DNA of 63,725 nt, the filler included, from Intoshia linei (taxonomy: Eukaryota; Animalia; Orthonectida): the NCBI GenBank assembly GCA_001642005.1. It is 4 parts of 4 records of this genome, joined end to end, with 100 filler letters (N's around TTAATTAATTAA, not from the genome) between each part and the next. Parts side by side here need not be neighbours in the genome. Positions count along the whole stretch, not along the records: positions 19,802 to 45,857 come from LWCA01000484.1; 3 more parts are not named here. One strand, written 5' to 3'. Under the pieces are notes generated by a model that ran no database searches, was not told where the DNA came from, and saw only the letters and a program-made list of their open reading frames with translations. Below, piece by piece: positions 21,128 through 57,555 of the stretch. A program made the position numbers and the translations under genes. Each line of letters starts with the position of its first letter. Position 1 is the stretch's first letter.

Positions 21128-23746
21128 TTAATGTGTAAATTTGGCTATAATGTTTGCAATAGATAGACCTATATATAAAGCGTCAAAAGCATACATAAAA
21201 GGTTTAGAGTTAAATATAGAAGAATTCGGATCTATATCTGATATAGGATTTATTTCAACTTTTTCAGAATATCCAGTTTCTCTATTTATGCAATTATATT
21301 CATTGTTGATAATAACGCAATTTGCGTATATTTTACGACATTCAGCGCAATATGCGCAATCATTGTGAGCTACTATTGAAATGTACATATTTGTGAAATA
21401 ATTGGTAAACAATTCATGTCTTGGTCCAAATATCATTGAGGCAATGTCTACAGAGAGTATAGTGCTTGATGTTTTAACGTCTGTGTCTATATCCAATGCC
21501 ACCATGTACAAATAGTCAACAATAGTATCATCAATCTAAATAGTTAATATATTTAATAATCTTTAGAATATTATTCAATGTATCTAGAATTAACGCGCAA
21601 TCCAGGGTCATGCACTGTTTGAACAAAGTACAAAACAGTCCTTCTAGTTTCTTACAAAAAATTAAAAATGTCAAACGCAGCTCAGTTTCGCAATCCAAAG
21701 TATTCAGTATACGATCCTAACTTATATTTTTTTTGAAAATCAAACTAGTCTGAAAGTTAAAAAAAAGATTATTCTGATAGAGCTTATGCCAGTTAATATA
21801 AATAGAAAAGTTCAATCCCAGAAATCTACGCATTGCCGATGAAAAATAATTTTTAATACAGATTACATGAATATTATCATTTGATAATTTATTAACCAAT
21901 ATTTTTCAAATATTTCTATTAAAATAAAAAGTTGAAAATGTAAATATTGATCCTACAATTTCAAAAAAAATGTGCATTGAACGTCACACATTTCCAATAA
22001 AATATGGGTGAAAATCTATATAATTCATTCGTTCGCAATTTTTCAATTTCAAATTATCATTTTTAAAACATTTTGTGTAAAATTTAAATTAAAACTACGA
22101 CAACGAATTACTAAAGTAATACAACTTCGTTATTATCATTTTTATATGTATTACAATCCTTTGCAATATTTGTAAAATTTACCTGAAATATGTTGATTCC
22201 GTTAATTATTGATTCATAATTGGTATTTGTAAGTATTTATTAAATTGGTACTGAATATATATTATCACATTGAAAATGACAAAATAGGTTTTTATAGTTT
22301 TATTTTTTCTGGAATTTATGCTATTTATGACAATTTTTAGGATTGGACTGTTTTTACTTTATTTTTAATATTATACATACATTCTGTCTAATAAATTCAA
22401 AAAATGGAATAACAATTGTTTTTAAAATTCTTTACCCAAATGTTAACAAACAAAAAATTAAGATGGAATAATTCACTTTAAAGTAAATAGTAATGTGATG
22501 TAACGGATCCACCTGAAACAAATTTGGGAACCACTCCTTTAAAGGATTGATAATAGTGAATAGTAGGATTTTTAAGTTAGATTTTCAACGTGAATTTATT
22601 TTTTAAGTATAATAAAAATGTGCTCTCGGCAGAGCTAGGTCCTGTTTGTACGTAGTATGTAAATTTATTTTTTGGTAGTATAAAAATGTTCCCTCGGTAG
22701 AACTAGGCTACGGGGATTGATAATAGTGAATAGTAGAATTTTTAAGTTAGATTTTCAACGTGAATTTTTTGATATAATAAAAATTGCCTTGGCAGACCTA
22801 CGTCATGTTTGTACATAGTTTGTACGTAGTACATAACAGTCAACCTAGTATTAATATAATAGTGTAATTAATAATAAAAAGTACGAAATATTTTATTTTG
22901 CTGAAACGAGACTTGAGCCAATGAAGAGTAATATCTTCCAAAAAACAAAAATCTGTGCTAATGTCGCCAGTCTCACGTTTAAAGTCAGGTTTGAGATAAC
23001 CCAGCATTGAAAGAAGAGTTGAATCAACGTCTAAAGATTTATGAGTTTTAGTGTCTGAATTTATATCTATAAAGGAAATAACTACTTCATCATACCAAGT
23101 ATCACCAACAGGAAATCTAATAAAATAAGACATAATCAAATAAAAAATCATAATACTTAATAGAATTAGTAGATTTATCAATTTGAACAACATCATCCAT
23201 TTTTCTTGGTTCCAATTTCATCCTATAAATGTGGTGATATAAATATAAATGAGACCAGGTGAGTGCTTCCAAAACATTTATTCCGGATGTCGATAGTCCT
23301 TCATCATATTGAATGTAAACCATTCCAGCAAACCTATCAGATGTAGATACTAACTCAACATATATTTTATCATGTTCATTTACTGCATTCGTAATATTTA
23401 ATGTATCCTCTTTTAATTCATAAAACCAATGCAATTGTTTAAATACATTATGATTCTTAAACTTTGAGATTTCTTCATTTTTAGTGATTTTAAAGACACT
23501 TTTATGAAATCTTGAGTCAACAATTGTCACAAATGACTCATTATTTTGAACAATTTCAACAATACAATTCATAGCAGACTTTAATTTTATTACTTGTTTT
23601 TCTTGTATCATTAACCGAACCGTATCTACATTTTTAAGGTTCTGTTCTATTGAAAATGAACCGTTACACCTATGGTTGCAGACGCATTGGGATTTGTATA
23701 CCACGTAGAAACATTGATATATCAATAATGCAAATTGTATATCCAT
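21128..23746 (-). CDS. Hypothetical ~409-aa secreted or surface-anchored protein, 3 exons
   Basis: Exons 23746-23157, 23116-22885, 21535-21128 join in frame through GT-AG introns (40 nt, 1349 nt); signal-peptide-like N-terminus, Cys clusters, hydrophobic C-terminal tail. Confidence 0.7.
21715..22262 (+). repeat. Copy of abundant dispersed repeat family A
   Basis: Matches 40025-40340, 42850-43140 and, inverted, 24915-25450. Confidence 0.85.
22527..22835. repeat. Locally duplicated repeat unit (family B); related copy at ~15330-15460
   Basis: GGAACCACTCCTTTAAAGG.TTGATAATAGTGA...GCAGAGCTAG shared with 15330-15460; partial tandem copies here. Confidence 0.7.
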
Positions 23747-24914: not shown

Positions 24915-25790
24915 GTGGATATTCAGTACCAATTTAATAAATACTTAAAAATACCAATTAAGTATCAATAATTAACGGAATCAGCACTTTATAAAAATAT
25001 TTCAGGTGAATTTTACAATATTGCAAAGGATTGTAATAAATATAAAAATAATAATAACAAACGTTGTTATAATTTTAATTTAAATTTTAAACAAAATGTT
25101 TGAAAATTAGAATTTGAGATTGAAAAATTGCGTAGCAATGAAAATAATTCCAAAGGAATCAATTATATAGATTTTCACCCATATTTCTTTATTGGAAATA
25201 TGTAGACGTTCAATACACACTTTTTATGAAACTGTAGGATCAATATTTACATTTTTAATTTTTATTTTAATCAAAATGTTTGAAAAATATTGGTTAATAA
25301 TATGTTAAAAATTATTTTTCATCGGGAATGCGTAGATTTCTGGGGTTGAAATTTTGTATTTATATCAACTGGAATAAGCTCTATCAGAATAATCTTTTGT
25401 TTTAATTTTCGAAAAATTAATTATTTAACAATTTTTGTTTAATAAAATATTTCGGAAAAAAATATAGTAATACTAGAATGCTTTTTTGACTATGAAGGTG
25501 TCACTTATTCAGATTGAAATTTTTTGTGTGTGTTAACAAGATACAACTGTACCAGTAACTTGTAATTTTTTTTAAATTTTAGGGCTGTTTTCATTAAAAA
25601 AAAGGTAATTTAGGGTTTTGGCCCTAAAGATGTATTTTTTTTTAAATTTAAATTTATGATAATATTTATGATTTTAAAATCCGTAGCAGAGTATATATTT
25701 TTTTAATTTAATTAAAGGGGCACATTTAATTGTATTGAGTGATACTCTATATGTAATTCATTATAATTTAAAGAAACTGCTGTTTTTTGC
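24915..25790 (-). repeat. Copy of dispersed repeat family A (inverted)
   Basis: Reverse complement of 39700-40340 and 21715-22262 segments. Confidence 0.85.
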
Positions 25791-26178: not shown

Positions 26179-27014
26179 TTAATAACGAGAGTTAAGAGTG
26201 TATTTTAATTTAATTTTATTGTTAAAAAAAGTTCAAAAGTTATCTTCATTTTAGATAAAATTTTTTTGTTGTTCATCTAGAATTTTCTGGTAACCAGCAA
26301 TGGTCCATATAGACCACTTTCTTAAATTTAAAATTTTAAGTTTAAACTCCCACATTATATAAAATCAATTATATCAGATACTGTATTGTAAATTAATGTA
26401 ATTGAAAAGTGTTTCAATTCACACGCATGATTTATTTTTAGAAATGCATATTGTACAATTGTATAGAATGAAAATAAAGCAACAACAACCATGAATGTGA
26501 CGAAAACGATAAAAATTTGACACACAAATAAGATTAATGCCATTATCTAAATTTAATAGTTAAAAATTATAATCATTAAAATCGATATATTCAAATGAGA
26601 ACATAACACATTACATTACGATATAATCGACAAATGGCGTGTTAAAGTGTATGTCTCATATTAACTGTTAATAAAAATAAATCCATTATACACAAAGTCG
26701 TTTTAATCGTATTATTGATAAAAACGATAACAAATAATCACTTGAATGAGTCGCCCGTAACATTATTGAATCCTCTCATTGTTAAGATAATATAAAAAAT
26801 TTAGAGTAATTTACTTATTATCTTGGAAACGTATACGAAAAACAGACCAACATCCATAACAAAAGAGTTGGATACGCGAAATGTCGATATCGATGAAGCT
26901 GACAAAGAATAGAATACAAAAATAGATTTTTGAGTCACCAATTTCCACCTAAATTTTCAAAACTCTAACAATTTATCAGACCACTAAATTATAATAAATT
27001 AAATAGAGCTGAAA

Positions 27015-30000
27015 ATGACAGATGCATGTACAAAACCTAAAAATGTTTTAAATGGAGTGGATGGAGACTATAAAGTATATATTTATGTTAATGGAATTTG
27101 TTGATACATTTATTTAGTATAATACAAAATCTCATGACACGGCAATTTATAGAAACTTAAATTCCAATAATTCGATCGAAAATAATGATTTTGTGCAAGA
27201 TTGCATGTAATTTAAACCGCTAGATAATTTATACATTCATATATTCAGTTATATTTTAATGTTCATTTTCAGAAATAATGGGGCCACTAAAGTCAATTTA
27301 AATTATAAAAATTTACAAAATTACGTTAAAATGTATGACGATGGAATTTCGCATGTGTCTTCTGAAACCTGCTCAGTTTTATATAATACTAATGGTGATT
27401 TTGGAGTAGTTAATCCGATGAACACATCGTCAAAGTTGGAGACGAATGACTTTCATCACAAATTAAACATTATTGATGAACACGTTCCGTCTTTAGCATA
27501 TTTTAATCAAAATCAAAATATTAAATTTCATGGAAATAATCAGTCTCCACACGTTTATCAAACTAATCATTATTCTGTAATTATTTTATTCTTTCAGTGA
27601 GATTTGATATGATTAAAGACACACAATTTGATTCCAATTTAAAAATTAATTTTACGTGTACCCGCCATGTTCAGTATCATTTGAATAAATCAAAGATTGT
27701 TAACTTTTTTTAAATTAATTTCATTTTTTTCATTTTTTAGGAATTTTTACCTTTTTCTCAAGCTTCTAATGGAATTTACAATGCCGATCCAAATTTCAAA
27801 AACGAAATGGATGCACAAAGGTACTTTTAATTTCTAGATTGGAACCTAAAGTAATAGTTCGGCCTTATTTTATTAGTAATAGTACCACTGATTTTTTCAA
27901 TTCATCTGGCCCGCGCCATTGATTTCTATGACCCAACAAAAAAATAAGACAATGAACTGAATTTTAAACTCACCATTTGAGTCACTTAGATTTACTAGTT
28001 TAAGCTTATTTATAATATGTCTTGGTTCAACTTTTAACTTTTTTAACTCGAATAAACAAAATTAACTTTGGTATTATAAACTTTTAAAGAGACTGTATCT
28101 CTTTTTAAATTTTGAAACAACATGTAAAAAAAATCAATTTTAGATTTGGATGGGAATCTGCGCCAATTGAAAAATCAAATCAACCTTATTCTCATATAAA
28201 ACGAATGGTAGATGGAACTGGGGTCGAATACCAATCATGCCGAGATTACAACAAACAAACTATTACTACTACAGTTGATAGTAAAGCTCGGGTAGATGTA
28301 TTATTGGAAGCAAAACTTAAAATCGACAATTTTAAGCCAAATACCAGGAAAATAAACGTTGCTAATAGTGAAGATGGTAGAGACGATAAAAATAAGGATA
28401 AATGGAGAAACCCAGTTCTCGCTGAAATTATTGAATATTTATCAAATAGTGACCCCATTATTGTGTCAAATGCAGCTAGGTACTTGCAACACATTTCTTT
28501 TCGAAATATTCCCATCAAGGATAAAGCTGGAGATGCTGGAGCCATAAAAATTCTTGTTAAACTTACAGTTTGTGATGTTTACCATGTTCAAAAATATAGT
28601 ACATATGCTTTAAAAAATTTACTTTATAATGATAGCGACAATAAGAATAAGGTAACCTTTTTTGATTATTCAGTAAAAAATATAAACATACCTGGACACT
28701 AGAACCCTGCATGTAATCTCATGCAATGAGCCATAGACCCTTACCGAGATTTAAGATGAAAATAATGCAGAAATGTAAAAAAATTTAATTTAGTTTTCAG
28801 TAATACAATACTAATTATTTTCTAACTAAGTTCTCGAATTATTTTGTTTATGGAAAAAAATTTAAAATCGTATTTCAGCGCTTCTCAACATTCTTTCCAT
28901 ACGAAATTCATTGTAAGTTTATTGTAAACTTTATAATAAACTTTATGTATAGTTTTTTGGTTTAATTATGAGGAATTTAAACATGATTAAAAATAAAAAT
29001 AAATGAGCTAGAACTGAATTTAAAAAAACAAAATGGTCCCCAAAGCATGGTAAACCCATCAAAGAAATTAACTAACATCATTAACCATATAAACCAAATT
29101 TAAACTGATTATAAAGAAAAAAAATTCCATTTTATATTTATCTTAACATTTTTGTATGAATTTTGATGATTACATTTGAAGGGGTAAATATTATAACCCA
29201 TTTCATTTTTTGAATGCTTAAAATGAAAAAAGGCATCACCTTGCAAAATGGGTTTTCTAATAAAAAAAAGATCAAAAGTGGACACCATATTGTAGTACAA
29301 TTGTATAGTGTAGCAATTAAAAAAAATTGAAATAATTTTAATACCAATTTTTAGATTATCATCTAAAACTTTTAATTTTAAATGTAAAAACAATAAAATT
29401 ATTGTAACAATCCTAAAAAATAGTTATAAAATCATTTAAATGATGAATTTCAAAAAAAATTCTAAATAATTGTACCTGTAGTACAGTGGTTACCGATTGG
29501 GGTTCAAACTATATTCCAGGGGACCGTAAGATTTAAATAAAATATACAAAAAATTTATCAACTTTTATTTATTTTAATAGGAGAATAATATAATTTTCGG
29601 ACCGTTAATTATTTCAAATTTTTTGTTTTAATAAATTAGTTTCGAAATAAAAAAAAATAATATTAAAGTGCTTTTTTGACCGTGAAGTCGTCACTTATTC
29701 AGATTGAAATTTTTTGTGTGTGTGTTAATATGATACAACTGTACCACCTGTAAAAATGTTTAAATTCTAAGACTGCTTTCATTAAAAAAAAAGGTAATTT
29801 GTGGTTTTGGCCTTGAAGATATATTTTTTTAAATGTAAATTTATGATTTTACAATACGTATCAGAGTGTATATTTTTTTAAATTCTTGAACTCGTTTGAT
29901 TTTCAAAAAAAAAACAATTGGGCTTTTTGATCTGTAAGATGTGAGTTTGAGAGGTTGAAATTTATTGTGCTAACACCTCCGGAAAAAACTGTAATTGAAA

Positions 30001-33000
30001 TGTGGACTTTATAAAATTCTAAGACTGGTAGTTATTGAAATAAACGATAATACACACACTTACACAGACAAAAAAATCATATTATATAAGTAAGCATTAT
30101 AATTTCAAAAAGGTATATCTTCATTGTCAAAACCATAAATTACCATTTTATTTAAAAACAAAAAAACTTTTGATTACCTCGATATACATTATTGTTATAA
30201 TTTTATGAGTATCTACTAATAACTAAAATCTAGCTACTTTTTTTAAATGCCAATGGAATAGAATATATTAAAACCAATTTGGAAAATTTGTCAAATGTGA
30301 ATAATAAACAAGAAATGGATGATTTGATTGTAGGTATAATCTGCAATCTATCTTCTTGCAAGGTTAATCAATTTTATTAATTTTAGTTTATTCGGAACAA
30401 GGTTGTTGAAGTAGTTCAACGGTTGAACTGCTATGGACTAAAATTATAGTTCTTAAACTTTTTTGTATAGTACCCCAAACTTTTGATTTATTATTATCAT
30501 TTTTAAAATAATAAATAGAATTCTAAGACAGATTTTTCCAATCATTTTTTGTAAAACATTTAAATCTGAAAAATTGTTATTTTCACTGTCTAAAAGTTAT
30601 ACAACATTGTAATTCAACATCTGAAGCGAACATTTCATAGTTGTAAAATTGGAAATTTTTATTCAAGATGAGAAAACCGATTATTTTCTTAAAATTTGTA
30701 AAAATTTTCCTCCGAGTACATAACCCTTTTCAATGAAATACTTGCAAAAAAAATGTTGAACCATTAATATTTTTTGATATACATTTGTATATTTTGTATA
30801 GGAAGTAAAAATGGAAATATTTTTATCAATATTGGAAATTTTTATAAACACGTATTATTTTCCTGGAATGATGGACGCAATAAACATGGTAAAAGACAAT
30901 TATACTGGAAAACGAGTTTTGCATACATCTTTATCATTTCATCATTGTTTGGCTGCTATTCGGTTAGTTTTGTTTGATTTACACTGTATTTGAAAATTTA
31001 ATTGTAAATTTTAGAAATTTAAGTTCTGAAGTTAATGAAATACAAAATTATTTGAGAAATTATGAAAATTTTACAAAAAGTTTGTTGCGATTCATAGAAA
31101 AATCTCTGTTAAAAGAAAGTGTAAATAATATTCTCGTAGAATACGTTACGTGTACTCTTCGAAATTTAACTTTTAATATTCTCAAGGGATCTAAAGGTCT
31201 TACAGTCTATATTATAGATAAAACCTTAAAAAAGTCAAAATCAGGTAATATTATTATGATTAATATCCCAACGAAAAATATTAAAAATTAAAATTTGATT
31301 CTTTGGGGGGAAAATTGCTTGGAAAGTGATATAAATGTTTATATAGTAAAAAATATGCTTATAAATTTTATCATACAGGCTATAATTATAATTATATAAG
31401 GGTGTCAACTTAAATCCAACCATTTTTACTAAAAATCAAAATTTACCAACACTAAAAGGAATATTCCAGTTTTACAGAATTGCAGAGTATCCCATAAAAA
31501 CTCAATATCAGAAACAAAACAAAATGAAGTTCTCAAATAGAAAGATTAGTGATAAACAAGTTATTCCGGACGCATCAGATTCAATCAAAGTTTTCACGTG
31601 AAATCAACAGTTAATCTATATGGTGTAACTACCAAGGGTTTCCATAGTTTTTGATATTCCTTGCCTTCGTCAGTCGTAATTGTTTGAATTATACACTGTT
31701 TACTTCTCTTTTTGCATGCCTGTTTCAGAAAATTCAGCCCTTCAAGCACGCAGGTTGGTAAATTGGGATTTTTCACATAAAAGGTTGGTAAAAGTGGGTT
31801 TTCCCCATAAAGGTTGGTAAAATTGGGATTTTTCCTTAGGGGTTTGTAAAAGTGGATTTTTAGTAAAAATGGTTGGGTTTAAGAATATTATCATTATATA
31901 ATTTAGCGACGTTAAAATCAAAAAATATTGACAAATCATATGATTCAAGTTCAACAAACAAAGAATTTGATAAATCAAACGATACTTTAGACTTATTAAC
32001 ATCAAAACCAATTTTAGCCATGTTAATTCGATTACTATACCATTGTACTTTAACAGGCATACTTGAAGCGACTGCAGGAATAATTCAAAATTTAACCATA
32101 TGGAATAACTCATACATATCGCCAGTGATACGCGAAAATATTAGAATATTGAAGGGATTACCAATATTGGTAGAATTTATATCATTTACCGATATTAAAT
32201 TAGTCGTAACTGCCATTTTAACCTTGAGAAATTTAGCCTACAATAATGATAATAAAAATTTAATTTTTAAATACTGTATTCGAACCATTATTGGTAAAAT
32301 TCCTGAAAATTTACAATTAAAAAATGGCAATTCAAATCAAAATAATCATGATTATGCCAACTACATTGAATTAGTTGCGGCTATATTACGATTAACAAAT
32401 CAATTGTCTAAAAAAAATTCAGAATGTGTTAAAGAATTAATGATTGAAAAAACTTTTGTTACTTTGAAAAATTTATCAAATAATACAGAAAAATCTTTTC
32501 CCGAAATTAATAAACTATGCAACAAAATTTTATTATCCATGTGGAAAATTAAGGAATTTCGAAATGAATATAAAGAAAATGGATTTGTAAATAACCGTAA
32601 AAATGATGTCAAAGGTATTTTAAAGAATGCTAATGATAATAATTCTTTGCAATTGACTAAATCAAATTCTTCTCAATTTAATCCTTTTAATGATACAGAA
32701 AATTATTCTGAAAGACCTGTTGATGTTACCTCTACTATAAATGTAATTTGTTTTATTGGTATCAAATATTTATTTTCCTATTCCCGAAGGAATTAACTTC
32801 TGAAAATTAAAATTTCACTTTCCAAAAATTGTATTGGAAATTGGGTTTTAAATTTTTTTAACTTTAACATTATTAATTTTTTAAATAAACGATCAACACT
32901 CAACAACACTAACACACAAACATTGAATTTGATATAGGTAAAGGGATTTTACTGATATACATAATATAATGTGTGAGTAATCATATTACTATGTATTTAT

Positions 33001-33288
33001 AATGGTTTAATTCAATTTTATAGGACTCAATAAACAATTTTCAACCCAATATAGATAGACAAGTAACTTAATTTTTTTTAAAATAATATCTATAATTAGG
33101 CATACAATAATTATGCGTTTACTCAATCACCATCCATTAAATCCAACACTTATTGTACTATAAAAGATACACCCAAAAAACTGAAAAAAAAACAAGAAAA
33201 TTTCAATTCATTGAATCATTTAAATATGCATGAACTTAAAGCAAAAATTTCAGATCGAAATGAAGAAAATAATAATGCTTGGGTTTAA
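27015..33288 (+). CDS. p120-catenin / delta-catenin family armadillo-repeat protein
   Basis: WRNPVLAEIIEYL..VSNAARYLQHISF, NLSSCK, FRNLSS, VEYVTCTLRNLTF, ILEATAGIIQNLT, LKGLPILVE; ends NNAWV* (delta-catenin-like PDZ-binding tail); start codon less certain. Confidence 0.9.
29575..30150 (-). repeat. Copy of dispersed repeat family A in a catenin intron
   Basis: Reverse complement of ~39460-40025. Confidence 0.85.
31410..31883. mobile_element. TIR element with 33-bp subrepeats and a possible transposase scrap
   Basis: Inverted ends CTTAAATCCAACCATTTTTACTAAAAATC / GATTTTTAGTAAAAATGGTTGGGTTTAAG; minus-strand TITTDEGKEY segment loosely resembles Merlin/IS1595 transposases. Confidence 0.5.
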
Positions 33289-34377
33289 GCTTTATTGTTC
33301 TATTTTAATGAATAAAATTATTTTGAAATTCATTAATTAATTCTTACATTCATTTAATAATGTGTTCAATTATAATGACTACTTTTATAAAGTGAATTGT
33401 TTATGTTAGAGTCCTGTAACGCAAAAGTAAGCCCGTTGGAAAATACAGAAGTTTGACAAAATTTTTTAGCGTTACACTGCTGGAGTAAAAACATTTCGCC
33501 TCAATATAAAAAAACACATTCTGAAATAATTTATTGAAATATAATTGTAGCCCGTCATATGCCCCCTAGCCACGTCCCTGGGTCGGATATGTCGATATTA
33601 TATAACAGTGACCACCAAACTACTGCCTGAAATTGAATTTTACCGGCCCGCCAATTACAAAATGCACCGGTGATATCTTACAAATTATCATATATCATCG
33701 ACTTAGATTATAAATATATACTATCGAGTCGATAGTATCGATTTGTCATTTCTAGATCATGAGAAACTTATTAATTCATTGACTTAAATTTTAAATTGCA
33801 ATTTAATGTACCGTCATATATATTTTCCATTTGGCTTTATGTTATTTCATTGATTTTATTAAGTTTGAGGTTTATTCAATTAATAAATATTTAATTTTTT
33901 TGAATTTATTTAATCATATTTTAAATAAAAATTTAAGATCGTAGTTACTAATTATTAATTTTTTTCAGAGATGATATACGACGATATAATTTTTAAAAAG
34001 ATGAAAATTTGAAAAATGTAAAGTAGAGTCTAGATCGAAGGTGCACAACGTGCGGCCGTGAGCAATAAATCTGATCATAATGCAATATATCATTTTACTT
34101 CAAATTGAAAAGTTAAACTGAGATTTTATTCAAGATCTATTTAAAATATTTTAATCAAAAAGTTACATTCTTGACTTAGTCCCAGTTTCTCAAATTTTGG
34201 CGAAGGGCACACAAAATCAAGTCAGTCACTGATATCTTTTTTTATGTCATTATTATTATTTACATATTTTTTTGTTTTCCACTCTAATGTATCAACAAAT
34301 CAGTTTTTAATAGAACTTTTTCCTGTTATCCAATTATTATTTATTATTTACCGAAAATTAATCAATAATTTTTTTTA

Positions 34378-34630
34378 AATCAGGGTTTTTATTATGGAAT
34401 TAGTCGGTAGAATTATTGTTCTAATAATTTGGTAAAATGGGATTTTTTATAAAAATATAGGTAAAAGCTATTTTTTTCGTTAAGGGTTAGTAAAATTTGG
34501 TTTTTTCTTTTGGAATTAGATACGGTCGTTTTTATTCTAAAACTTTGATAAAAATGAATTTTTAAAAAAAATATTGGTAAAAAAAGATTTCTTCCTTAAG
34601 GGTTGGTAAAATTATGGTTTTTTCTCATAA
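34378..34630. repeat. Degenerate ~33-bp tandem repeat array (family C)
   Basis: Units like GATTTTTCCTTAAGGGTTGGTAAAATT; related arrays at ~10910-10995, 31755-31875, 55370-55700, 56075-56330, 56680-56740, 57050-57200. Confidence 0.7.
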
Positions 34631-35139
34631 AATTATATTAAATTAAATGATTTAATGAAATATGTTGAAAATTGTAGATTCGCCTACAATCATCTAAATT
34701 TTCGTATTCACCCCTTGGGGTGACCAGTCACCCTATAAGAAGCACTGCATTAATCCTACTATTGCTATTTATTCCGATTCAGATAAATGACAAATAAGTG
34801 TTAATATATGAGTGATATAAAGATTAATTTTAATTGAAAATTATTATTAAACTTGCTGATATTAAAATTTAAAGAAAATTATTTTATTAAACCTAAAATT
34901 TAGGTCCAGACTCTGGACTCTAGAGTAAACTTTCTCAATGTCGAAGTAAATTTTGTGCGGCCGTAGTATCAATGAGAAACGTAGCATTGTGGCTGAATTG
35001 GTGGAAAGATTGTGAAATTTGGAAAAGATGTTCAATGTCAGATTGATATATAAAATGTAAAACAAAATATAATTGTTATTTTTAGTATCCCCTTTAAATT
35101 TCCCTGTAGAATCAGCTTTATAAAATATTAATATACTAA

Positions 35140-35405
35140 CCAAGAAGAGATAATATTTATGATTTTAAAATCCGTATCAGAGTATATATTTTTTGAAATT
35201 CTCAAACTCGTTAGATTTTCAAAAAAGGACAATAGGGCTTTTTTACCCGTAAGGTGTAAGTTTGGGAAGTTGAAATTTAGGAAATTTAGTTTGGGAGGTT
35301 TGCTAGCACGCCCGAAAAAAGCTGTATTTGAAATGTGGACTTTATAAAATTCTAAAACTGGCACACACAAACAAAAATCGCTTAGCATATTATATAAGTT
35401 AGGGG
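35140..35405 (-). repeat. Partial copy of repeat family A
   Basis: Reverse complement of ~39510-39770. Confidence 0.8.
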
Positions 35406-35499: not shown

Positions 35500-37086
35500 C
35501 TATATTATATTTGTGGGTTCCATAATTAAATTTGATTCATTTTTATGTGCATCAGATTCCTTTCTAGGGGATGATTGTAAACGGCGTAATTCGGTTCCTT
35601 CAGTCTTGATATAATTATTAAACGTCCTGACTTGATTTTTATCCAATGCTTGAGACTCGGTAATTGAAAGATGATCATTGAGACATTTGTACCACTGCAT
35701 AATTTTTTGTCGAAACCATGTACATTCTTGATAACCATTACCGGTAGTTATTGTGTTGATGTATAAATTTTTTATAAAATTTTTTCGATCAATTCCTTCT
35801 TCCATGTCTCTTAAATCTGTACAATCCGCTTCATTTGTACATTGAAAAATACAATCAGGAACATGTGGTTCACATTCTACTAATCCAAACTTATCCGAAA
35901 TTATGTAGTCCTTTTCAACTTTTCCTAAAGTTTCAATATGAACTTCGACATAATTTGAGTTTATACATATCAGTGCTTCAATAGGTAAAAAATTCTTTAC
36001 ATATTTTAATGGAAGTTGAGCAATTTTGCAAGCTATAACCAAAACATCGCTATATATATTGTTTTTCATTACTATTCCATTCAAATAACATTTTTTATTA
36101 TCATTCTTTTTAAAATTTTTCTCGAGTTTTAGAAATTGTAAATATACAAGGCTTTGTACAAATACCTTTAATCTCATCAATATCTTTAAAGAAGAGACTA
36201 AATTGCGTCTGGCAATAATAATATCAATAAAATAAGTCGCTATGCCGTCAAGGTATATTTTAAATCTGTTAAATTTAAAGAATCCAATTGTATCTTGAAA
36301 CAAATTAAACCAATCTTGATTTGAAGCATTAACACAATTTCTCTTAATTCTGCAAAATAAATCCAGCGGTGCATAATAATTTATTTGACAGTAATCCAAA
36401 TTCAACTCCATGTCGTTTACCACGGCATTCTTGTATTTATTTTGACAAGATGATATGTATTCACCAAGTTGCGTAGACAAGGAATTTTCATAAATTTGCG
36501 AAATTGGCATATATGAATTATTATTGTTCATACCATGTTCATCTTTTGGTTCAGGATCAGTATATTTCGAAGATTTGAATTTATAAAAATCTTTGCGCAG
36601 AAAAGTGTCGATGCTACAAAATTGAATTCTCGCGAGCTTTCGTTGAATCTTTTCACTTGATTTAACTTTTTTATCAATAAATTCCTGGTTAAACGATTTT
36701 CTATTAATATTATAGCAATCATGGCAAGTACATTCTTTATCAGTGTAAAAATATTTTCCTCTATTCGTCTTTATTGTTTTATTGAATTTATTTAAAAGAA
36801 TATTGTATTTAATCCTTTCTATTGACATTGAATCAATTCTAATTAGTCCCATATCTTTCAAAGTATCATCAATTTTGGCTTTGGTATATAAATCGTTGCA
36901 TTTAGTTTCATCGTCATTATTTTGATTAAATCCTAATGCATGATCTAATATGCATGTAATTTTTTCTATTGATGCATCAATGTCATTAGAATTTATTGAC
37001 TCTGGTTTATTTTGACTTGGTCCAAGGTAGTTTTTACTGTGGCAGCAATCATTATTTCCTTTACTAAATTTTCCGAGATATTGCAT
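35500..37086 (-). CDS. Hypothetical 528-aa intronless protein
   Basis: Long uninterrupted ORF in very AT-rich DNA; AATAAA downstream on minus; no family recognised. Confidence 0.75.
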   Translation of the reverse strand: MQYLGKFSKGNNDCCHSKNYLGPSQNKPESINSNDIDASIEKITCILDHALGFNQNNDDETKCNDLYTKAKIDDTLKDMGLIRIDSMSIERIKYNILLNKFNKTIKTNRGKYFYTDKECTCHDCYNINRKSFNQEFIDKKVKSSEKIQRKLARIQFCSIDTFLRKDFYKFKSSKYTDPEPKDEHGMNNNNSYMPISQIYENSLSTQLGEYISSCQNKYKNAVVNDMELNLDYCQINYYAPLDLFCRIKRNCVNASNQDWFNLFQDTIGFFKFNRFKIYLDGIATYFIDIIIARRNLVSSLKILMRLKVFVQSLVYLQFLKLEKNFKKNDNKKCYLNGIVMKNNIYSDVLVIACKIAQLPLKYVKNFLPIEALICINSNYVEVHIETLGKVEKDYIISDKFGLVECEPHVPDCIFQCTNEADCTDLRDMEEGIDRKNFIKNLYINTITTGNGYQECTWFRQKIMQWYKCLNDHLSITESQALDKNQVRTFNNYIKTEGTELRRLQSSPRKESDAHKNESNLIMEPTNII

Positions 37087-37184
37087 ATTCTATAATTTTT
37101 TAAATTAAAATACATTCATTAATTGCATAATGATAATTAATCTGTGACCACCTTTTAAGATAAAAATTTATAATGAATATATTA

Positions 37185-39234: not shown

Positions 39235-40340
39235 TACCAAAGTGCATTTTTTGATCATGAAGACGTCACTTTGTGAAATTAAAATTTTTTTAAATTCTAG
39301 GAATTATTTTAATTTTTTAAAAAATAGGGCAATCTAGAGTTTTGATCATGAAAATTAACTTTTTTGAGATTGCAATTTATGATAATACTTATGATTTAAA
39401 AAAACATATAACAGGTTGTATGTTTTATAAAATTCTAAGTTTTTTCGTTTTTAAATAAAAAAGTAATTTATGGTTTTGACAATGAAGATATACCTTTTTG
39501 AAATTATACTCCTTACTTATATAATATGCTTTGTTTGTCTGTGTGCGTGTGTTATCGTTTATTTCAATAACTACAGTCTTAGAATTTTATATAGTCCACA
39601 TTTCAATTACAGTTTTTTCCGGGGGTGTCAGCAAAATAAATTTCAACTTCCCAAACTCATATTTGACGGGTCAAAAAGTCCAATTGTTCTTTTTTTTGAA
39701 AATCAAACGAGTTCAAAAATTTAAAAAAATATACACTCTGATACGGATTTTAAAATCATAAATATTATCATCAATTTAAATTCAAAAAAAATATATTTTC
39801 AAAGCTAAAACACCAAATAACTTTTTTTTTTAATGAAAACAGCCCTAGAATTTAAAAAAATTTACAGGTGGTACAGTTTATCCTGTACACACAAAAAATT
39901 TCAATCTAAATAAGTGACACCTTCACGGTCAAAAAAGTATTTTAGTATTCATATATTTTTTTCCTAAATATTTTATTAACAATGTATGTAAAACAAAAAA
40001 TGTAAAATAATTAACGCTCCGAAAATTAAAAAAAATAAATAATCTGATAGAGCTTATTCCAGTTGATATAAATACCAAACTTCAGCGCCATAAAATCTAT
40101 GCATTTCAGGTGAAAAATATTTTTCAAATATTTCGCTAAAATAAAAATAAAAAATGTAAATATTGATCCTACAATTTCAAAAAAAATGTGTATTAAACGT
40201 CTACACATTCAAATAAAGAAATATGGGTAAAAATCTATATAATTGATTCCTTTGGAATTTTTTTCATTGCTACACAATTTTTAAATCTCAAATTATCATT
40301 TTTTAAAATTTAAATTAAAACTACAACAACGAATTACTAA
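39235..40340 (+). repeat. Longest copy of repeat family A, with an internal long inverted duplication
   Basis: Contains CCTTACTTATATAATATGC..TTTGTTTGTCTGTGTG; 39240-39500 is a diverged inverted copy of ~39690-39945; short copies also at 12742-12900 and 19585-19701. Confidence 0.8.
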
Positions 40341-40497
40341 AATTTTTTTATAAAAAGGTTATTTTATGAAGTAAAAAACAGCCAAATGAGTTTAATCTAA
40401 ATTACAATAAATATATATAAATGTAGTTGTAATAAATAAAATATAATACAAAATATGAAATAATTGGTTATAAAATTTATTAAAAATACAAAAAATT

Positions 40498-42095
40498 TTA
40501 AAAGTTTGGAAAAGGCAAATTTAAAAAAGTGGTAGCCATTAAACAAAAATTATAATTTTTCTTTACAGTTAAATTAGATTTAGACAAGTCTTGCTTAGGC
40601 TGAATAATATTACCATTTTCAAGATATTTCCAAAATATTCGATCGTAATTATGTTGAATGGGTTTTATTTTTCCAATAAACAATTTAATGTACGAATTGA
40701 AGAATTTTGGTAATTTATACATTTTTTTTCCTTCACTTTTTTGACAATATATTTCACAATGAGAATCGAAAAGTTGAATATCAAATAAAAATATGTTGAG
40801 TAAATAAGAAGGTGGGATTTCTAGAAAATGCAACAATAGAATGGCGACTTTAAATTCAATAAATTCATCGTTGTTGGGGGCTTCGGATACAAAACTTTTT
40901 ATTTCGCTTTCTTTAAACAATTTTGATATATTTTTCATTTTATCTAAGAATATAATGTAATATTGACTAAGAAAATAATTTTATTCTTAATCAAAGTTGT
41001 TTAAAAATTACTAATATTCGCTGTTTGTATAATCCACTCAATACGAGGATTAGAAAATACACCCGTATGATCAGAACATGTTTGTGCCAAAAAATTATCC
41101 AATTTACAAAATTTGTTGATACATTTATTCAATAAATTATAATCAAAATTCAGCAAGTGAAACAAATGATAAGTGTATCGTAAGGCATCGTCAATATTAT
41201 AACTATGATTTCTACCTGTAAATGCGACAAAATTAGATGAAACATTAATCAATCTAATATATTTGGATTTTACGAGATTTATAGTTCTTGTATCTTCCGG
41301 ATTAGTATCACTGGAAATTTCTTCGCACGATACTAATTCACGTTTTCTTTTGTTTTGTCTAAAGCTACACGTGTTATAATCTAAAAAATTGGCTAAATTC
41401 AGATATAGCGCTACATCAAAACTAAATTTATGCATGACGTTTCTACCCATTTTTTCAACACCATATCGAAAATCTTTGAATTTAGGAATGTTATAGTATC
41501 TGCGAAATAGCAATCCATTTGTGATGTCATTATATGTCAAAGTGTTAATATAATTGGTGAAATATTTTTTGCAAAAAAAAGGGATTTTATATTCATCATT
41601 TTCACTTTCAACATTATTTATGTTTTGTTTTTTAAGATTAATCCAACAACCTTTTTCAGGGTCTATACAAACATTTGATATTTCGATTATTTCAAGATCA
41701 TTAATAGTTAATTTTGCAAAATATAACAAAATTACACCAATTTTTATATGAATATACTTTTCATTGTCTGGAGCATTTTTTATAAAATTAATAATTTCCG
41801 CTTCTGAAAATCTTCTCACGGGATTCATAGGTTCAATATCGTTTCGGTAACTTTTAAGTAAAGTGTCAACTCGTTGAAATGATTTTATATGTAATCCAAA
41901 TTTTTTGTAGTATATTGAATTTAATATGACAAATAAACAACATATTGTACTTTTTTTATATTTTTTTTTTAGTTCTAATAATTTGGCATAATCGTAAAAA
42001 TCATCTTCGTCGAAATTTTCAAGTTTATCATTAAAAAGACAGAATTCTTCCCAGAGTTGATTTTTTTGTTTTTCTGCTTTGGTGAAAGGTTTCAT
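40498..42095 (-). CDS. Tyrosine-recombinase (Crypton-like) derived protein with two tandem, apparently inactive domains
   Basis: ORF 42095-41001: KKYKKSTI, FSEAEIINFIKNAPDNEKYIHIKIGVILL, VALYLNLANFLDYNTCSFR. ORF 40938-40498 repeats FKESEIKSFVSEAPNNDEFIEFKVAILLL..ATTFLNLP. A phase-1 GT-AG intron (e.g. 41011-40944) joins them in frame. Confidence 0.7.
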
Positions 42096-42567
42096 TTGAA
42101 CATATAATAAATATTAAGGTTTTTATATTAATTACGCTTCATGAACGCAGTTTCTAGTAAGAATTTTTGATTTACATGAATGTTAATAAAATTAAAGTAA
42201 AATGGTAACGTAGCCAATATATTGTCACTAACGTTAGTCTTCAATGATTAATAATCACTATGGCAAGTTTTTGTCAAAATACAATATAAATTGTCAAAGA
42301 AGAACTTTCATAAAAATTATCATTTTTCATTATTGCTTAGTTATATAAATCATAATTTGTTATAAAAAATTTGAAAAATGTCAAAAAAAAAACTTGTCCT
42401 AATAATCACTATTGTTATCATTTTGATATTTATTCCACAATGAGCTACCAGACTTGCCAGAAAACTGATTAAAATATTAAGAAAAAGTACTAAAAAATTA
42501 AGGTGATAAAATTTTAAACTGACAAAATAATTAATAAGTTAAAACATAAAATTTTAAGTTACATTAC

Positions 42568-45122
42568 TGTAGTATCCAAGAAGCACATATTATAACGTTG
42601 TACTTTATTGATTAAACGATAATTGTTAACTCGTGAATGTTAGATACAACATTGGTGTCAGAAGTGCTAAGTGGTAAACCCAACATATTGTTATCGAATG
42701 ATGGTGACTTATTGATGAACGTGAAAGATTGGATTGATAAATTTGAAAATTTTAGACTTTTGCATTATGATGATTCATCATATAAGAGAATCGAAAAGTA
42801 GTTTTATTGAAAATATGCATCTGTGACGAGGCGAAAAGACGCTTAAAACTATTATTTTTTTTTTGAAATATTTTATTAAAACAAAAAATGTGCATTGTAC
42901 GTCTACACATTTCCAATAAAGACATATGGGTGAAAAATCTATATAATTCATTTTTTCGCAATTTTTAAATTTCAAATTTAAATAAGAAACTAAAAAAACT
43001 TTGTTAATATCATTTTTATATTACAATCCTTTGCAATAATGGTAAAATTCGACTGAAATGTTTATAAAGTGAAGATTCAGTTAATTATTGATACACAATT
43101 AGTATTTTTAAGTATTTATTAAATTGGTATGGAATATATGTCATCTCTATTTTAAATGACTTGGATTGTGTTATATGTTATATGGATGATATTATAGTAG
43201 CATCTAATGATAAAGATCAGTATAAAAAAGATTTAAAAGAAGTGTTTATGCGAATACACAAATATAACATCACATTAAAGCTTATTAAAACATTTGTTGG
43301 TCAGGAAAAAATAAATATATTGGGCCACGTTGTTGATAAAGACGGAATTAACATTGACCCAAATAAAGTAAAAGCTATAGGAAATATAGCAGCACCTACC
43401 ACTCTTAAACGGTTACGTTCTTTTATAGGAATGTGTAGTTATCATAGACAATACATAAAAAACTTTGCTGATATAGTTGGACCATTACATGACTTACTAA
43501 AGCATAGATCGCAATTTATTTGGACTAATGATTGTAATAAGGCTTATATTAATTTAAAAAATTTAACTTCGGCACCGGTACTATCATTTCCAATAGTAGA
43601 TGTACCTTTCATTCTAGAAACTGATGCTTCAAATAAAGCAATGGGTGCCGTGTTAAAGCAGAATGGGAAAATAATTATAGCAACGTTGAAAAAGAATTAT
43701 TAGCCGTAGCATGGGCCATTCCAAAATTTAAATATTATCTTTATAGTACTACATTTACAGTTATTACTGATCATCGACCTCTAGGTGTATATTAGAAATT
43801 CCAAAAGATTAAGTAAAAGGCAATTCAAATGGATTCAACAACTTGAAAATTACAATTTTGAAATAATATATAGAGAAGGAAAATTTAATTATACTGCAGA
43901 TATACTGTCACGTCCCCAGTTTGATTCCGTTAACTCTATCAAATTTGTACCAGTTTCATTTGATGTACAGACATATCAATCCAATAATAATGACTGTCAG
44001 AAAGCTTTATGTAATATTAATGAAATCACGAAAGATAATATATATTATCGTTTTAAAAAGAATTTAATAATAAAGGATGCCATATTATATTTTAAAAAAG
44101 GTGATATTTTGGTTCCAGTAGTTCCACCAAAATTAATTCCAAAAATTCTGGAATATAATCACACAAATTACAGTTATTGTCATTCTGGAATTTCAAAAAC
44201 CAAACGAATACTTAATCAACTCTATTTTTGGCCACAACAAACACGCACAATTGTTAGCTACCTACAAAATTGTAACATTAACAAGTCTCGTAATCATAAT
44301 TTTTATAAAGAATTAACCTGTTAAAACTGATAAATTTAATTTTCTTTGGCAAATTGATATATGTGGTCCTTTCACTGAATCGAATAATGGTTTTAAATAT
44401 GGTGGATGGGTTGAAAGTTGTCCTGTTTTTAATATTTCTGCAGATATTATATTTGATGTTCATTCACATCATTCAGCATTCACATATTATAACTAGATAC
44501 GGACCTCCGTTAGAAATTCATACGGATCTTGGTAAACAATTCGAATCTAATTTATTTAAAGAATTATGTAAGCGATTTGAAATAAAACGATCTACTTCAG
44601 AACCATATCGACATCAACAAAATGTGGCGGTAGAACGATTTTATCGATATTTTCGAAAGAAGTTGAACATATGTTGCAAGAATGATGGGTCAAATTGGGA
44701 CGAATATTTAAACGATATATTGTTATCCGTTCGTCTATTACCCCATGAAAAATGGAGAATCTCGCCATTGGAGGTTTTATTCGGGTCACAAAGAAGCTCA
44801 TCCATTCCAAATTACTGTTTGAAAAGTTCTTGGAAAGACACTCTGGCGTATAGAAACAATTAAGATAAAAAAGTTCAAAAATCAGTATCCTATCATGCTG
44901 AAAATTTTATATCTAATGAACCAAAAATTTCTAAAGAACAACTTAGATACAAGTCTCGAGTCTCAAAATTACCATCAAAATTTCAAGACTACATCGTCGA
45001 CTTAAATGGAGAGGTGTAGTGCAATAACAAAATATCTTTATTTAATACTCTATTATCGTTATCGCACTAGAACATACACTCAAGATTATTTTAAACTTGT
45101 GATTAAACTTATAAACACTACA
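42568..45122 (+). mobile_element. Decayed Ty3/Gypsy LTR retrotransposon
   Basis: LTR-like 42568-42651 followed by PBS TGGTGTCAGAAGTG; RT YMDD, RNase H ETDAS, integrase HHCC remnant and IHTDLGKQF..VERF in RT-RH-IN order with frameshifts; PPT AAATGGAGAGG then TGTAGTG..CACTACA (45015-45122). Confidence 0.92.
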
Positions 45123-46235: not shown

Positions 46236-49200
46236 TTATTTTTTTTTGTTATCTTCTTTTCTACTTAGCGTTAAAATTATTTCATGCGTAGAGTTTTTTA
46301 TTATTTCTACCAAATCTTTGTGAGTCAATTGGCTAGTTGGTATTGAATTTATCTTTTCTAATTTGTCTCGAACTGAAATCATGTTGGTTTTGTAAGCTAA
46401 ACCGCCATAGTTAATGCTTTTAATGTAGTAGCCTTCGCAATCAAATGTATTAGAACCTGATTTACCGCAACCCACTACACTTAGCCCAAGTGTACTATTA
46501 TCAAAGAGAGGTATTGTGACTTGAAAAGGTGACGACCAGTTGAGATCGGAGGGTAACTTGCCATTAAATAGTACTAGCAATTTTTTCTTAATTTCCTCGT
46601 TTCTGGAACGTAGCATTTCTTCTTCAGATAGACAACGCTGAGTTACATCTGCAGTATCTACATATTGTTTCGGTGATTTTCCATGTTTTTCTTGAATTTT
46701 AATGTTTTCTTGAATATGAAATTGAAAATCATTTTTGGGAATAAATGTTAATATGACGCTGCGATTAAGATTTGAACGCAAAATTATTGACTTGACAGTC
46801 ATTCTTTCAACATCACAAAGGTTTTCCCCATTTACAGCTACCAAATAATCCCCAATTTCAGGTTTTGCGTTGTCACTACGCGCAAATTCTAATTTTCCTT
46901 CATTTATCCAATTTATCATAATTTCATCAATTAAATAACCGTTTTTGTGTTGATCAGCATCATCATTAAATGTTATTGACAATTCCTTTTCACCAAGAAT
47001 GAGAAATACGTTTCTGTATAAGGCTGTGGGTAAAAAATTTTCAATTGATGACTTTGATGAATCTGAATCATTCTGATTCAATATTTTGTTTTCTAGTATA
47101 TTTGAAACATTAATATCATCATTAGAATCATTGACATTACCATGCCCATTAGTAAATTTGTCAGATTTTTCATATGCATCTAAAAATTTATCATTAGCAT
47201 TGTTTTCATCACTGACAACGTCACTATTTAAAGATTTATCATTTTGATAATAGCGTTGAATTATGGATTCTTTTTCTTTGTGTCTAGACACGACAAAGGT
47301 AATTGAATTTGATAAAGATTTGAGTATAGCAACAACTTGCAAATGTCCATATTTAGTTAAAATGGTACCGTTAACTTCCAATAAACTGTCTCCTATAACT
47401 AACGGCACTGCAGAACGTGAAACAAGTCCATCAGGTACGATTTGTCGGATAAGATGTACTTGACTTCCTTTAGTAGGTTTTGTGGTGCCTTCCAGTACTA
47501 GTCCCAAAGTTTCTTGGTTTTCTTTAAACAACTGCACTAAAAATATTTCAACATTTTCGGTACTCAATCGCTTTCGCCATTTTTCAAGGATAAACATTTT
47601 GTCTTTTTCAGTCATTTCACCATTATTTTTAAGATAATAACTTTTATGTGCCGATATTGGTCGTTTCAAACAAAGCAATACAACTTCACCAGCATTCTTC
47701 AATGTTTCAAATGCCTTTTCATTTTCGACATTTAGCAAGCTTTTTCCATTGACTTCGATAATTTGGTCACCTACTAAAACATTTCCATGTTTCTGGGCTG
47801 ATGAATTTTGTGTAACTCTGCTTATAAAAACTCCGGGGACAAATTTATTACCCTGACACGTCCGATAACCACTAACTTTTATTCCTAGTCCACCATCTTT
47901 TTTATGTAAAATTACTACAATTTTAACACAATTTTCTTCGTTATTTATAATGGTATCACTATTGAATGATTTTGAAACTTTTTCAATTGTATCGTCCAAT
48001 GCAACATCCGGTTCGATAATAATTTTGTTATCGTTGGTCAAGTGAATACGGTTTAAACCTTCATGGAATTCTTTCCATTCTATATGCAGTTTATCAACCT
48101 CTTCCCATATGTTTTTTGATTCAATTACACATTTTAAATCTTTGTTACCATTAAAATCCTTGTAATCAAATTCACTTGCTTCTCTGCCAATAATCAAATG
48201 GACATTATTTCCCGCGTGTCTGAGTAAAGTAGCCACTTGGGCGCAATTTGTTCCTTGCACGCTAAATTCACCAATTTGTAAAATGTTGTCTCCACTTTTT
48301 ATTCTACCGTCCCGGTGAGTTAAACCACCGGATACAATTGTTTTTATTATAATGTTTGATTTTTGTGCATCGTAAATTCCAAAACCCAGGCCAGATTTGT
48401 CAACAACCAAATCTATTACTTCAATTTCAGCATATTCAGATGGAATCTAAAATTTAAAAAATTAGAATGATTGGGAGGATGGAACCACCAAAAAAAATTT
48501 TATTTGAAATTCAATATTTTTATTGTTATTGGGTACAACTGAAAACAATTTGAAAACCTGAATGAATGCAGGGGTTGCCAAATCGATCCATCTGGGCCCT
48601 GGGTCCATATAAAATTGGTGATGTGAAAAAAATGAAAAAATGTGATCAGGAAAATATTCATTTTTAATCTTAAGAAAATGGAAAACTCTGTTGACCTCTG
48701 ATTTAATGCATAATTATAAAATTTACCGGTATATTTATAGTTACATCTCCATCATCGGACGGATTGTAAAAAATAAATCTGTATTTTTCTCCATCGAAAT
48801 TTTCTTTAAAAAATTCTTCGAAATTTGTAATTGGTGACAAAAAATTTCGATTAATAGCAATTAATTGATATCCAATATTTACATTGTATCTATAAATTAT
48901 AAAATAATGCTAATTGTATAATGCCGGTTCGCGAAATAATTGCGTGAAAAATTTTTGAAAAATCGTGAGAAATATGACCAATGATCATTAAGAGGATTAT
49001 TAATTTTTTTAGTATAGCCATCTTAATATTCGCAATTTTATCATATACTACAGATCAAATGTAGTGTATTAATTTTAAGAATATATTCAAAATTTTTTTC
49101 CGGTGTGTATTCTAATAAAAAAATTGCTACTCAACCCCTCCACTTGAAATAAGCTAAATTTCTTACCTGTATGAGAGAAAATGAGCGACATTTTTTCAGT

Positions 49201-52210: not shown

Positions 52211-52864
52211 TTAATCAGAATCGGAAGAAATTGAAAATACATCATTGTAATCTGAATCAATCGTGTAATGGGTATCAATGGAGGAAAGGCTTGAAATGGT
52301 TGTTACACTAGTCCTAGAGCTGACTGTTCTAGCAGAAATATTATCATCATCGACTTCAGTATCACTGATATAATTGTAAACTTGACGTCGTTCTTCATTC
52401 TCTTCATTGATGACGTCGGACGCAATGTGGTTAAAATCCAAAATTTGATTTAATGGAGGTCCCACCCAGTTGTATAGGTTCCTGCAAATTTGTCTCTGTC
52501 TATAAGTATTATTATTGGCAAAAGTATGAGATTCTGAACTTGTTCTAGTGGGTCTATGCTGAGAATACACATGAGAATCGGTGTCATTAAAATCAACTCT
52601 TTGTAAAAATCTTTGATTAATAGTAACTCGTGTATTAACTTTAATTTTTGAGTGTACTATTCCATTGCAGTTTATATCAGTGTGTATATAATCGTATTCT
52701 TCATTACATAGTGGGCAGTGGTTGGATCGATTTGTCCATTCACTCAAGCAAATATAACAAAAGTAATGATAGCAAGCATCTCCTCTCGCTGGTTTATTTA
52801 TATCGTCGAGGCATATTGCACATTTGTCATCCATGTGAACTATCCTTTTATGCATCATTTTCAA
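52211..52864 (-). CDS. RING-HC finger E3 ligase, Topors-like, intronless
   Basis: CAICLD..DACYHYFCYICLSEW..CPLC C3HC4 RING followed by YDYIH; ERRQVY; Ser/Asp-rich tail. Confidence 0.8.
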   Translation of the reverse strand: MKMMHKRIVHMDDKCAICLDDINKPARGDACYHYFCYICLSEWTNRSNHCPLCNEEYDYIHTDINCNGIVHSKIKVNTRVTINQRFLQRVDFNDTDSHVYSQHRPTRTSSESHTFANNNTYRQRQICRNLYNWVGPPLNQILDFNHIASDVINEENEERRQVYNYISDTEVDDDNISARTVSSRTSVTTISSLSSIDTHYTIDSDYNDVFSISSDSD

Positions 52865-53315
52865 TTTTGGTAGTTCGTCCAGTCACACCAAGTAAAACAT
52901 TTTGTAAATTAAATTATTATTTGTTACTATAACATTATATATCCTAGTTATATATACATGGGAGTGAAGTTGAATTGTTATAACTTATAAAGATTATAGA
53001 AATAGTGAATTAGTGTAAGCTAATTATTGTAATTTATAATAAGCTACAGTAGTGTAGTGTTTTGGGATACTGTATTTTGATAACTAAACTGGATTGTTAT
53101 TTTATCTTTCCTATTTACGTTTTAATTTGTATTTATTTTGATTAAAACTTATAACAAGTATTTACCTACAAGTAGTATGCTACTACTCGTAGCATACGAT
53201 CGCCAATTTTCATATTTACATTAAGAAACTGATTGACTAATAACTAGGGCAATTTATTTATGACCAAAAATTCAAAAAAAATATGACTTTTTATGACAAA
53301 TGCATTTATTATAGT

Positions 53316-54372: not shown

Positions 54373-57555
<3,183 letters not shown>

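Follow-up and report, generated by a model that had tools for sequence, protein, structure and literature searches.

A spliced gene of Intoshia linei encodes two apparently inactive tyrosine-recombinase units and was probably domesticated from a Crypton-type transposon

The gene A3Q56_04007 of Intoshia linei encodes two whole tyrosine-recombinase units in tandem, each with a core-binding and a catalytic domain, and it is expressed, spliced, and intact in frame. We put the probability at roughly two in three that this two-unit, apparently single-copy gene was domesticated from a Crypton-type transposon as a putative host DNA-binding regulator that does not cut DNA, working most simply as a tethered pseudo-dimer; the exapted DNA-binding role, which we infer, is the last step of this reading. 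The gene lies on the minus strand of a 63,725-nucleotide stretch of AT-rich animal sequence (~26% GC), the whole of which we call the window.

As the first-pass annotation of this DNA proposed, two adjacent minus-strand reading frames are open over long distances here (ORF1, 41001-42113, and ORF2, 40498-40980; 370 and 160 aa, stop to stop), 364 open codons having a chance of ~7e-15 at the local composition. The FxExEIxxFxxxAPxNxxxIxxKxxxxLL motif said to be common to both frames is real (14 of 40 positions identical, 35%; E 2e-7, pairwise BLASTP), and a second proposed motif, AxxLNL, occurs as written in ORF1, whereas ORF2 reads AxxxLNL. Many GT/AG pairs could join the two ORFs in frame, and the suggested phase-1 intron is found with acceptor 40944 and donor 41011; the alternative donor at ~41061 has no joint among those listed. 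The 41011/40944 join gives a product of 509 aa (~490-510 aa had been predicted), identical to the database protein A3Q56_04007, labelled P0001 in our set (Table 1). The intron falls in the linker between the core-binding and catalytic domains of unit 2; the corresponding linker of unit 1 is uninterrupted.

Table 1. Features of A3Q56_04007, with positions counted along the window.
Feature	Coordinates	Strand	Basis
Exon 1 coding, aa 1-361 plus one base	41012..42095	minus	First in-frame ATG past a stop, at 42095
Intron, 68 nt, phase 1, GT-AG	40944..41011	minus	Joint in X3, X4, X5, X6; absent in X1
Exon 2 coding, aa 362-509 plus stop	40498..40943	minus	RNA-like contigs to 40515 at most
Unit 1 core-binding domain, SAM-like, four-helix, aa 6-92	41820..42080	minus	Core-binding profile, 58 bits
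Unit 1 catalytic domain, aa 93-247	41355..41819	minus	Intact-relative profile over aa 6-246
Polar linker, aa 248-270	41286..41354	minus	C-terminal profile without match
Unit 2 core-binding domain, aa 271-361, continuing to ~aa 366 in exon 2	41012..41285	minus	Profile, model, helix-B scoring
Unit 2 catalytic domain, aa 367-509	40501..40929	minus	19.2 bits, 0/500 shuffles; aligns to Cre 33-285

Because the A3Q56_04007 record is a gene prediction, we checked the splice join against contigs from five of the six listed sequencing runs (X1, X3, X4, X5, and X6), none of which is recorded as RNA. The joint 40943/41012 is present in contigs of X3, X4, X5, and X6 (4/5 runs, from two studies), so that the expected splicing together of the two frames is confirmed, and the DNA-like run X1 retains the intron on one 1901-nt contig with 4 differences. 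In X3, X5, and X6, contigs likewise lack 10 GT-AG introns of the armadillo-repeat gene next door, and we therefore read these three runs as RNA-like. This neighbour, which served as the RNA control, is a multi-exon gene on the plus strand (27000-34903) with 10-11 GT-AG introns of 37-1621 nt in the runs. Transcript contigs of A3Q56_04007 extend upstream of the exon 1 ATG to at least 42225, and exon 2 contains no GT between 40515 and the stop. The depth of RNA-like contigs is 439-1556 over 40515-42225 (minus strand) versus 62-99 for the armadillo-repeat gene in the same runs, although contig depth cannot rank genes.

A profile of intact relatives, for which 23 of the 69 relatives qualified by a complete C-terminal motif, has two matches in P0001, one of 141 bits at aa 6-246 and one of 23 bits at aa 285-505. 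Unit 2 alone scores 25.8 bits, which 0/1000 shuffles reach. The earlier reading spoke of two recombinase domains; there are indeed two units, but unit 2 starts inside ORF1 (at ~aa 271-285) with a core-binding domain of its own and spans the intron, so the ORFs are not domains. Scored alone on aa 248-362, the core-binding profile gives a weak match (13/1000 shuffles reach its score).

The recombinase fold, for which a structural check had been proposed, is found by profile comparison with Cre, by Foldseek, by structure comparison, and in the Atlas model. A profile of P0001 and 16 relatives finds Cre at E 4e-11. The model of unit 2 (aa 270-509, from a 42-sequence alignment; pLDDT 79) matches Cre with a Foldseek E of 3e-5 and in structure comparison with a Z of 13.9 and an rmsd of 10.0 (223 aligned), ending just short of Cre His289; the high rmsd likely reflects a free hinge, because matches restricted to the catalytic domain lie at 2.5-2.8 Å. 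A single-sequence model failed (pLDDT 35), and as the unit 2 model was guided by aligned recombinases, the fold it shows cannot count as separate evidence; the Atlas model of P0001 independently matches integrases over aa 4-260 (TM 0.58 by target). P0001 has the fold of the tyrosine recombinase superfamily, in unit 2 by an alignment-guided model.

The active sites of both units are heavily altered. In unit 1, which reads FAKLTINDL and YNTCSFRQ as first described, Arg-I is replaced by Thr130 (41706-41708) and His by Cys243 (41367-41369), and the Lys position reads Asn158, in an unsure alignment. The earlier description of this site as dead therefore stands for Arg-I and His but not for the catalytic Arg of HxxR (Arg-II), which is kept within YNTCSFRQ as Arg246 (41358-41360). 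In unit 2, Arg-I is replaced by Pro405 (40813-40815) and the chain ends a few residues before HxxR, the early stop that had been noted for this domain. Arg-I, His, Arg-II, and Tyr are all present in 22/22 intact units, which were selected as intact. Set against the R-H-R-Y tetrad with Lys and Trp/His of an active tyrosine recombinase, the two units read T130/C243/R246/none and P405/none/none/none, and judged by these residues the protein would be inactive.

The linker that follows unit 1 (aa 248-270) occupies the place of the helices that lead to Trp and the Tyr nucleophile in intact enzymes, and it bears out the claim that domain 1 has no recognisable Tyr segment. The basic run NKRKR that opens it may be a nuclear localisation signal. 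Searched over the window in six frames, a profile of the segment after HxxR gave no match (best E 3.4) but recovered 6/8 control loci; a missing third exon with the Trp and Tyr helices was rejected on this result. In two alignments, MAFFT put Tyr307 or Tyr279 under the nucleophile column; we rejected the first candidate, and the second is unsupported. Tyr307 (41175-41177) scores -5.9 as a nucleophile (52/5000 shuffles) and 16.2 as the helix-B tyrosine of the unit 2 core-binding domain (0/5000), which it is; Tyr279 scores -15.6, compared with at least 65 in intact members, and 377/5000 shuffles reach its score with the best gap chosen.

We consider it very improbable that some catalytic activity, that of a nickase or resolvase, persists in unit 1 through Arg246 combined with Tyr279 or with a tyrosine supplied in trans. 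In its favour are the kept Arg246, the position of Tyr279 36 residues after Cys243 compared with 35 in intact enzymes, the resemblance of KYI at 278-280 to the KYID of the family, and the MAFFT placements; but Arg-I, His, and Trp are gone, the nucleophile score of Tyr279 is far from that of intact members, Tyr307 fits the core-binding helix far better, and the table in the available part of PMC4381057 gives Cre R173A without a recombination rate. Since Tyr279 lies near the right distance, the linker may be a fully decayed remnant and not a clean truncation. The truncation would have preceded the duplication.

An exhaustive search identified 65 relatives at 21-39% identity. No ortholog was found: word-seeded searches with ORF1 and one alignment returned P0001 alone, and the closest exhaustive match has 39% identity. 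The named relatives are insect proteins, and the relatives are single-ORF proteins of ~300-450 aa with a core-binding and a catalytic domain and no further known domain; 14 of the 20 scanned match Phage_integrase at E<=0.01, with 12 above the cut-off of that family. P0001 itself has no Pfam or NCBIfam family, and Pfam gives no GCR1_C match in it. The proposed separateness from the DUF3504 genes holds, with DUF3504 matched by 0/21 proteins (P0001 and 20 relatives, E<=0.01) and by neither of the two ORFs at E<=1. In a DIRS/Ngaro retrotransposon the recombinase would be linked to RT/RNase H in one element without a DDE integrase; this reading was rejected, as the reverse transcriptase next to the gene is encoded on the opposite strand together with rve and Integrase_H2C2.

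In metagenomes, eight related loci of one sub-clade (L001-L008) lie on contigs of 1.0-1.8 kb, each matched by a single recombinase reading. Five of them, from one sample (L003-L007), are mutually 74-88% identical and several are frame-broken; the longest ORFs of the frame-broken L005-L008 span 124-197 aa. Short contigs with a single recombinase, in several diverged copies per sample, resemble a Crypton-type DNA transposon, and CryptonI is described in the accessible part of PMC3212892 as a group of insect elements with the recombinase only. The relatives appear by sequence to be Crypton-type, and the label CryptonI is one that we infer. The single recombinase ORF of CryptonI is found in the relatives on short contigs; P0001 has two units, and in place of dispersed copies and an intact catalytic site it has single-copy-like depth, an indirect measure, and a dead site.

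Copy number, for which a check had also been suggested, was judged from contigs of the DNA-like run X1. Depth is 6.3 on the A3Q56_04007 contig, compared with 6.7-14.2 on six further non-repeat contigs among those listed, 41.5-62.9 on Gypsy pieces, and values in the thousands on the repeats that flank the gene; the gene occupies a single contig, unbranched over 1.9 kb. Depth and lack of branching hint that the gene is single-copy, depth not being itself a copy number.

One repeat flanks the gene in direct orientation (40181-40262 and 42883-42966). The same repeat is also present at 21898-22221 and 24956-25291, so the flanking copies are not element ends, and we rejected them as such in favour of a common dispersed repeat. 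The high-copy, non-coding family to which we refer covers 39500-40345 and 42830-43100, with further copies near 21727-22221, 24956-25709, 29591-30106, and 35149-35360; its copies are 70-90% identical, its X1 depth is in the thousands, and it is possibly a non-autonomous transposon. A broken Gypsy-type LTR retrotransposon (43092-44863, plus strand; X1 depth 41-63) carries RT/RNase H, an integrase zinc finger, and an rve core in three frames. Elsewhere in the window, a 529-aa open frame without Pfam match (35500-37089, minus strand) is covered by RNA-like contigs in X5 and X6, and contigs of X3 and X5 that end loosely at 35522 may point to an extra exon or an alternative form; ordinary host genes are represented by a multi-PDZ protein exon of 736 codons (46236-48446, minus strand), a RING-finger protein (52211-52882, minus strand), and a protein kinase exon (54373-54816, plus strand).

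The direct-orientation repeat copies could suggest that the gene belongs not to the host but to a mobile element or an endogenous virus, as an accessory gene without catalytic function, which we regard as highly unlikely: the repeat recurs elsewhere in the window at a depth in the thousands, the retroelement beside the gene lies on the opposite strand and encodes a DDE integrase, and the depth of the gene itself looks single-copy. In addition, a scan of viral contigs with the relative P0005, by which only close relatives are detectable, found no relative, and a viral structure search gave generic integrases only.

The two units are identical at 38/183 positions (21%). They are sisters in two quick trees (SH-aLRT 97 and 94), the first with eight near-duplicate rows omitted and the second with 36 chosen rows, although this grouping joins two long branches, one of which is flagged for odd composition. 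Simulated neutral decay of the frame yields on average 5 stops at 90% identity and 27 at 45%, and leaves 1/300 frames stop-free at 90% identity and 0/300 at 80%. Together with this simulation, and with a neighbouring Gypsy element broken over three frames, the open frame despite the low identity of the units argues that the frame has been maintained; the divergence of the units may partly predate the loss of catalysis, from the time of the active element. Conserved columns are kept at 24/37 in unit 1 and 7/37 in unit 2, the latter an undercount with the C-terminal part of unit 2 unaligned. Both units are less basic than their intact relatives: the net charge of the catalytic part is +3 and +2 compared with a mean of +7.3 (range 2-15, 22 intact units), and that of the core-binding part +1 and +1 compared with a mean of +5 (range -1 to 11, same units).

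Low charge and the strong decay of unit 2 would also suit a transcribed relic, that is, a functionless, decaying tandem Crypton insertion spliced by chance, and so would the lack of an ortholog in the homolog searches and a repeat-rich locus between high-copy repeats and a broken Gypsy element. We nevertheless hold a relic to be quite unlikely, for it is at odds with a 509-codon frame open across a precisely spliced intron, with the number of stops accumulated under simulated neutral decay, and with the broken frames of the decaying metagenome relatives L005-L008.

Domestication as a DNA-binding regulator would have proceeded by an internal duplication that made the two units, after which selection would have kept the frame open. 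The core-binding and catalytic domains of each unit would together grip DNA and leave it uncleaved. In Cre, the C-terminal helices provide contact between subunits; their loss in P0001 would remove both the nucleophile and an inter-subunit contact, with covalent tethering taking the place of assembly. As a pseudo-dimer, the protein would then recognise a site of two parts and serve as a factor in transcription or chromatin, with unit 1 as the predicted main binder and unit 2 more decayed. According to the available parts of the sources, Arg mutants of Cre and Flp retain binding to their sites (PMC4381057), the helices of the core-binding domain make contacts in the major groove of DNA (PMC3537659), and MrpR is a dead recombinase working as a repressor (PMC10516654). 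With the gripping domains kept and the chemistry lost, the binding of these mutants and the MrpR precedent favour a host DNA-binding regulator; the lack of an ortholog, the low net charge, and the decay of unit 2 count against it.

Domestication might, more narrowly, have served defence: the host would keep P0001 to repress the transposon family from which it came, with the inactive pair of clamps occupying Crypton ends or promoters and blocking the active recombinase. The retained DNA-gripping domains and lost chemistry fit this as well, MrpR offers a precedent in what it does to its prophage (PMC10516654, as far as available), and dead units stand beside intact ones in several parts of the tree. 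We judge it unlikely, given that the homolog searches identified no intact family recombinase from Intoshia (most matches being unnamed), that the window contains none, and that P0001 is far from all intact relatives, at 29% identity at best. A more general host regulator remains our preferred reading.

We further find the same truncation in other proteins. The profile match ends at 248-259, around HxxR, in P0013, P0015, P0039, P0042, P0043, P0044, P0045, and P0059, some of which may be pseudogenes; P0018 and P0060 also end near HxxR, but with their catalytic residues intact, and may be no more than fragments. Dead units occur in tandem in P0015 (two) and P0044 (three), which group together in trees, and P0042 has a weak BTB match fused to its dead unit, echoing the pairing in KCTD1. 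A search with P0045 gave 16 relatives, 4 of which align over 99-100% of its length at 45-52% identity; P0079-P0081 share its Arg-I to Asp and His to Arg changes and end just after HxxR, and P0078 has other changes plus a third partial unit. P0045 and P0078-P0081 thus form an unnamed family nearest insect proteins, with tandem dead units, ~50% identity, and ends mostly after HxxR, and they are a candidate domesticated gene family in their own right. A single origin of the Intoshia units with this insect-type family was rejected (tree constrained with five insect-type dead units, p-AU 0.0023), and the architecture therefore arose more than once.

From these cases we draw a wider suggestion, offered tentatively: invertebrates may have repeatedly and independently made CryptonI-type recombinases into putative DNA-binding proteins by dropping everything after HxxR and chaining the clamps in tandem, forming an unnamed class parallel to DUF3504 that would include the insect-type family, P0015, P0044, and the BTB fusion P0042, with the Intoshia member as a tethered pseudo-dimer and possibly a core chromatin or Ndc10-like centromere factor. 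The repeated cut at one structural point suggests a simple way in which a recombinase becomes a DNA clamp. Several uncharacterised insect proteins can now be tested for a role in transcription or chromatin, and their hosts are far more tractable than an orthonectid.

The domestication of dead Crypton recombinases is already known from the DUF3504 genes, Ndc10, and Gcr1, as described in the available parts of PMC3212892, PMC13465315, and PMC5095916. The DUF3504 genes ZMYM2/3/4, WOC, QRICH1, KCTD1b, and KIAA1958 are likewise Crypton-derived, expressed, and without the catalytic Tyr (PMC3212892, PMC13465315, in part), but they belong to the CryptonA side and have lost Arg-II, which unit 1 of P0001 keeps, and they have one DUF3504 domain per isoform within a longer protein, whereas P0001 consists almost wholly of two recombinase units. 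Yeast Ndc10/Cbf2 and Gcr1 have a Crypton-derived, recombinase-like centre without a catalytic site and function at the centromere or in transcription (accessible text of PMC3212892 and PMC5095916); they derive from CryptonF, have a GCR1_C domain that P0001 lacks, and are not tandem as described there, and Ndc10 is not among the structural matches listed for unit 2. MrpR (PMC10516654) and SroF (bioRxiv 10.1101/2025.11.27.690993) do appear among these matches (Z 9.2 and 9.7). Both use the recombinase fold for DNA binding, MrpR having lost recombinase function, but as far as these sources extend they are bacterial phage proteins of ~320 aa with one unit, unrelated by descent to the Intoshia domestication. 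Cre of phage P1 is the best solved match by profile and by structure, over both domains; Cre is active, whereas unit 2 stops before the residues matching His289, Arg292, Trp315, and Tyr324. CryptonI transposons (PMC3212892, in part) would be the recombinase family from which P0001 came, since its relatives are single-ORF proteins, include insect proteins, and occur as several diverged copies in one metagenome sample; P0001 differs from them in its two fused units, the intron in unit 2, the missing catalytic tetrad, and the apparently single copy. The available part of the same source reports CryptonI only from insects and mentions no domesticated CryptonI gene, and in the open-access literature we found neither this gene nor any domesticated CryptonI described. 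With its two-unit layout, in a protein that matches neither DUF3504 nor GCR1_C, the gene adds a probable domestication from a recombinase lineage outside the DUF3504 and yeast genes, in a highly simplified parasitic animal.
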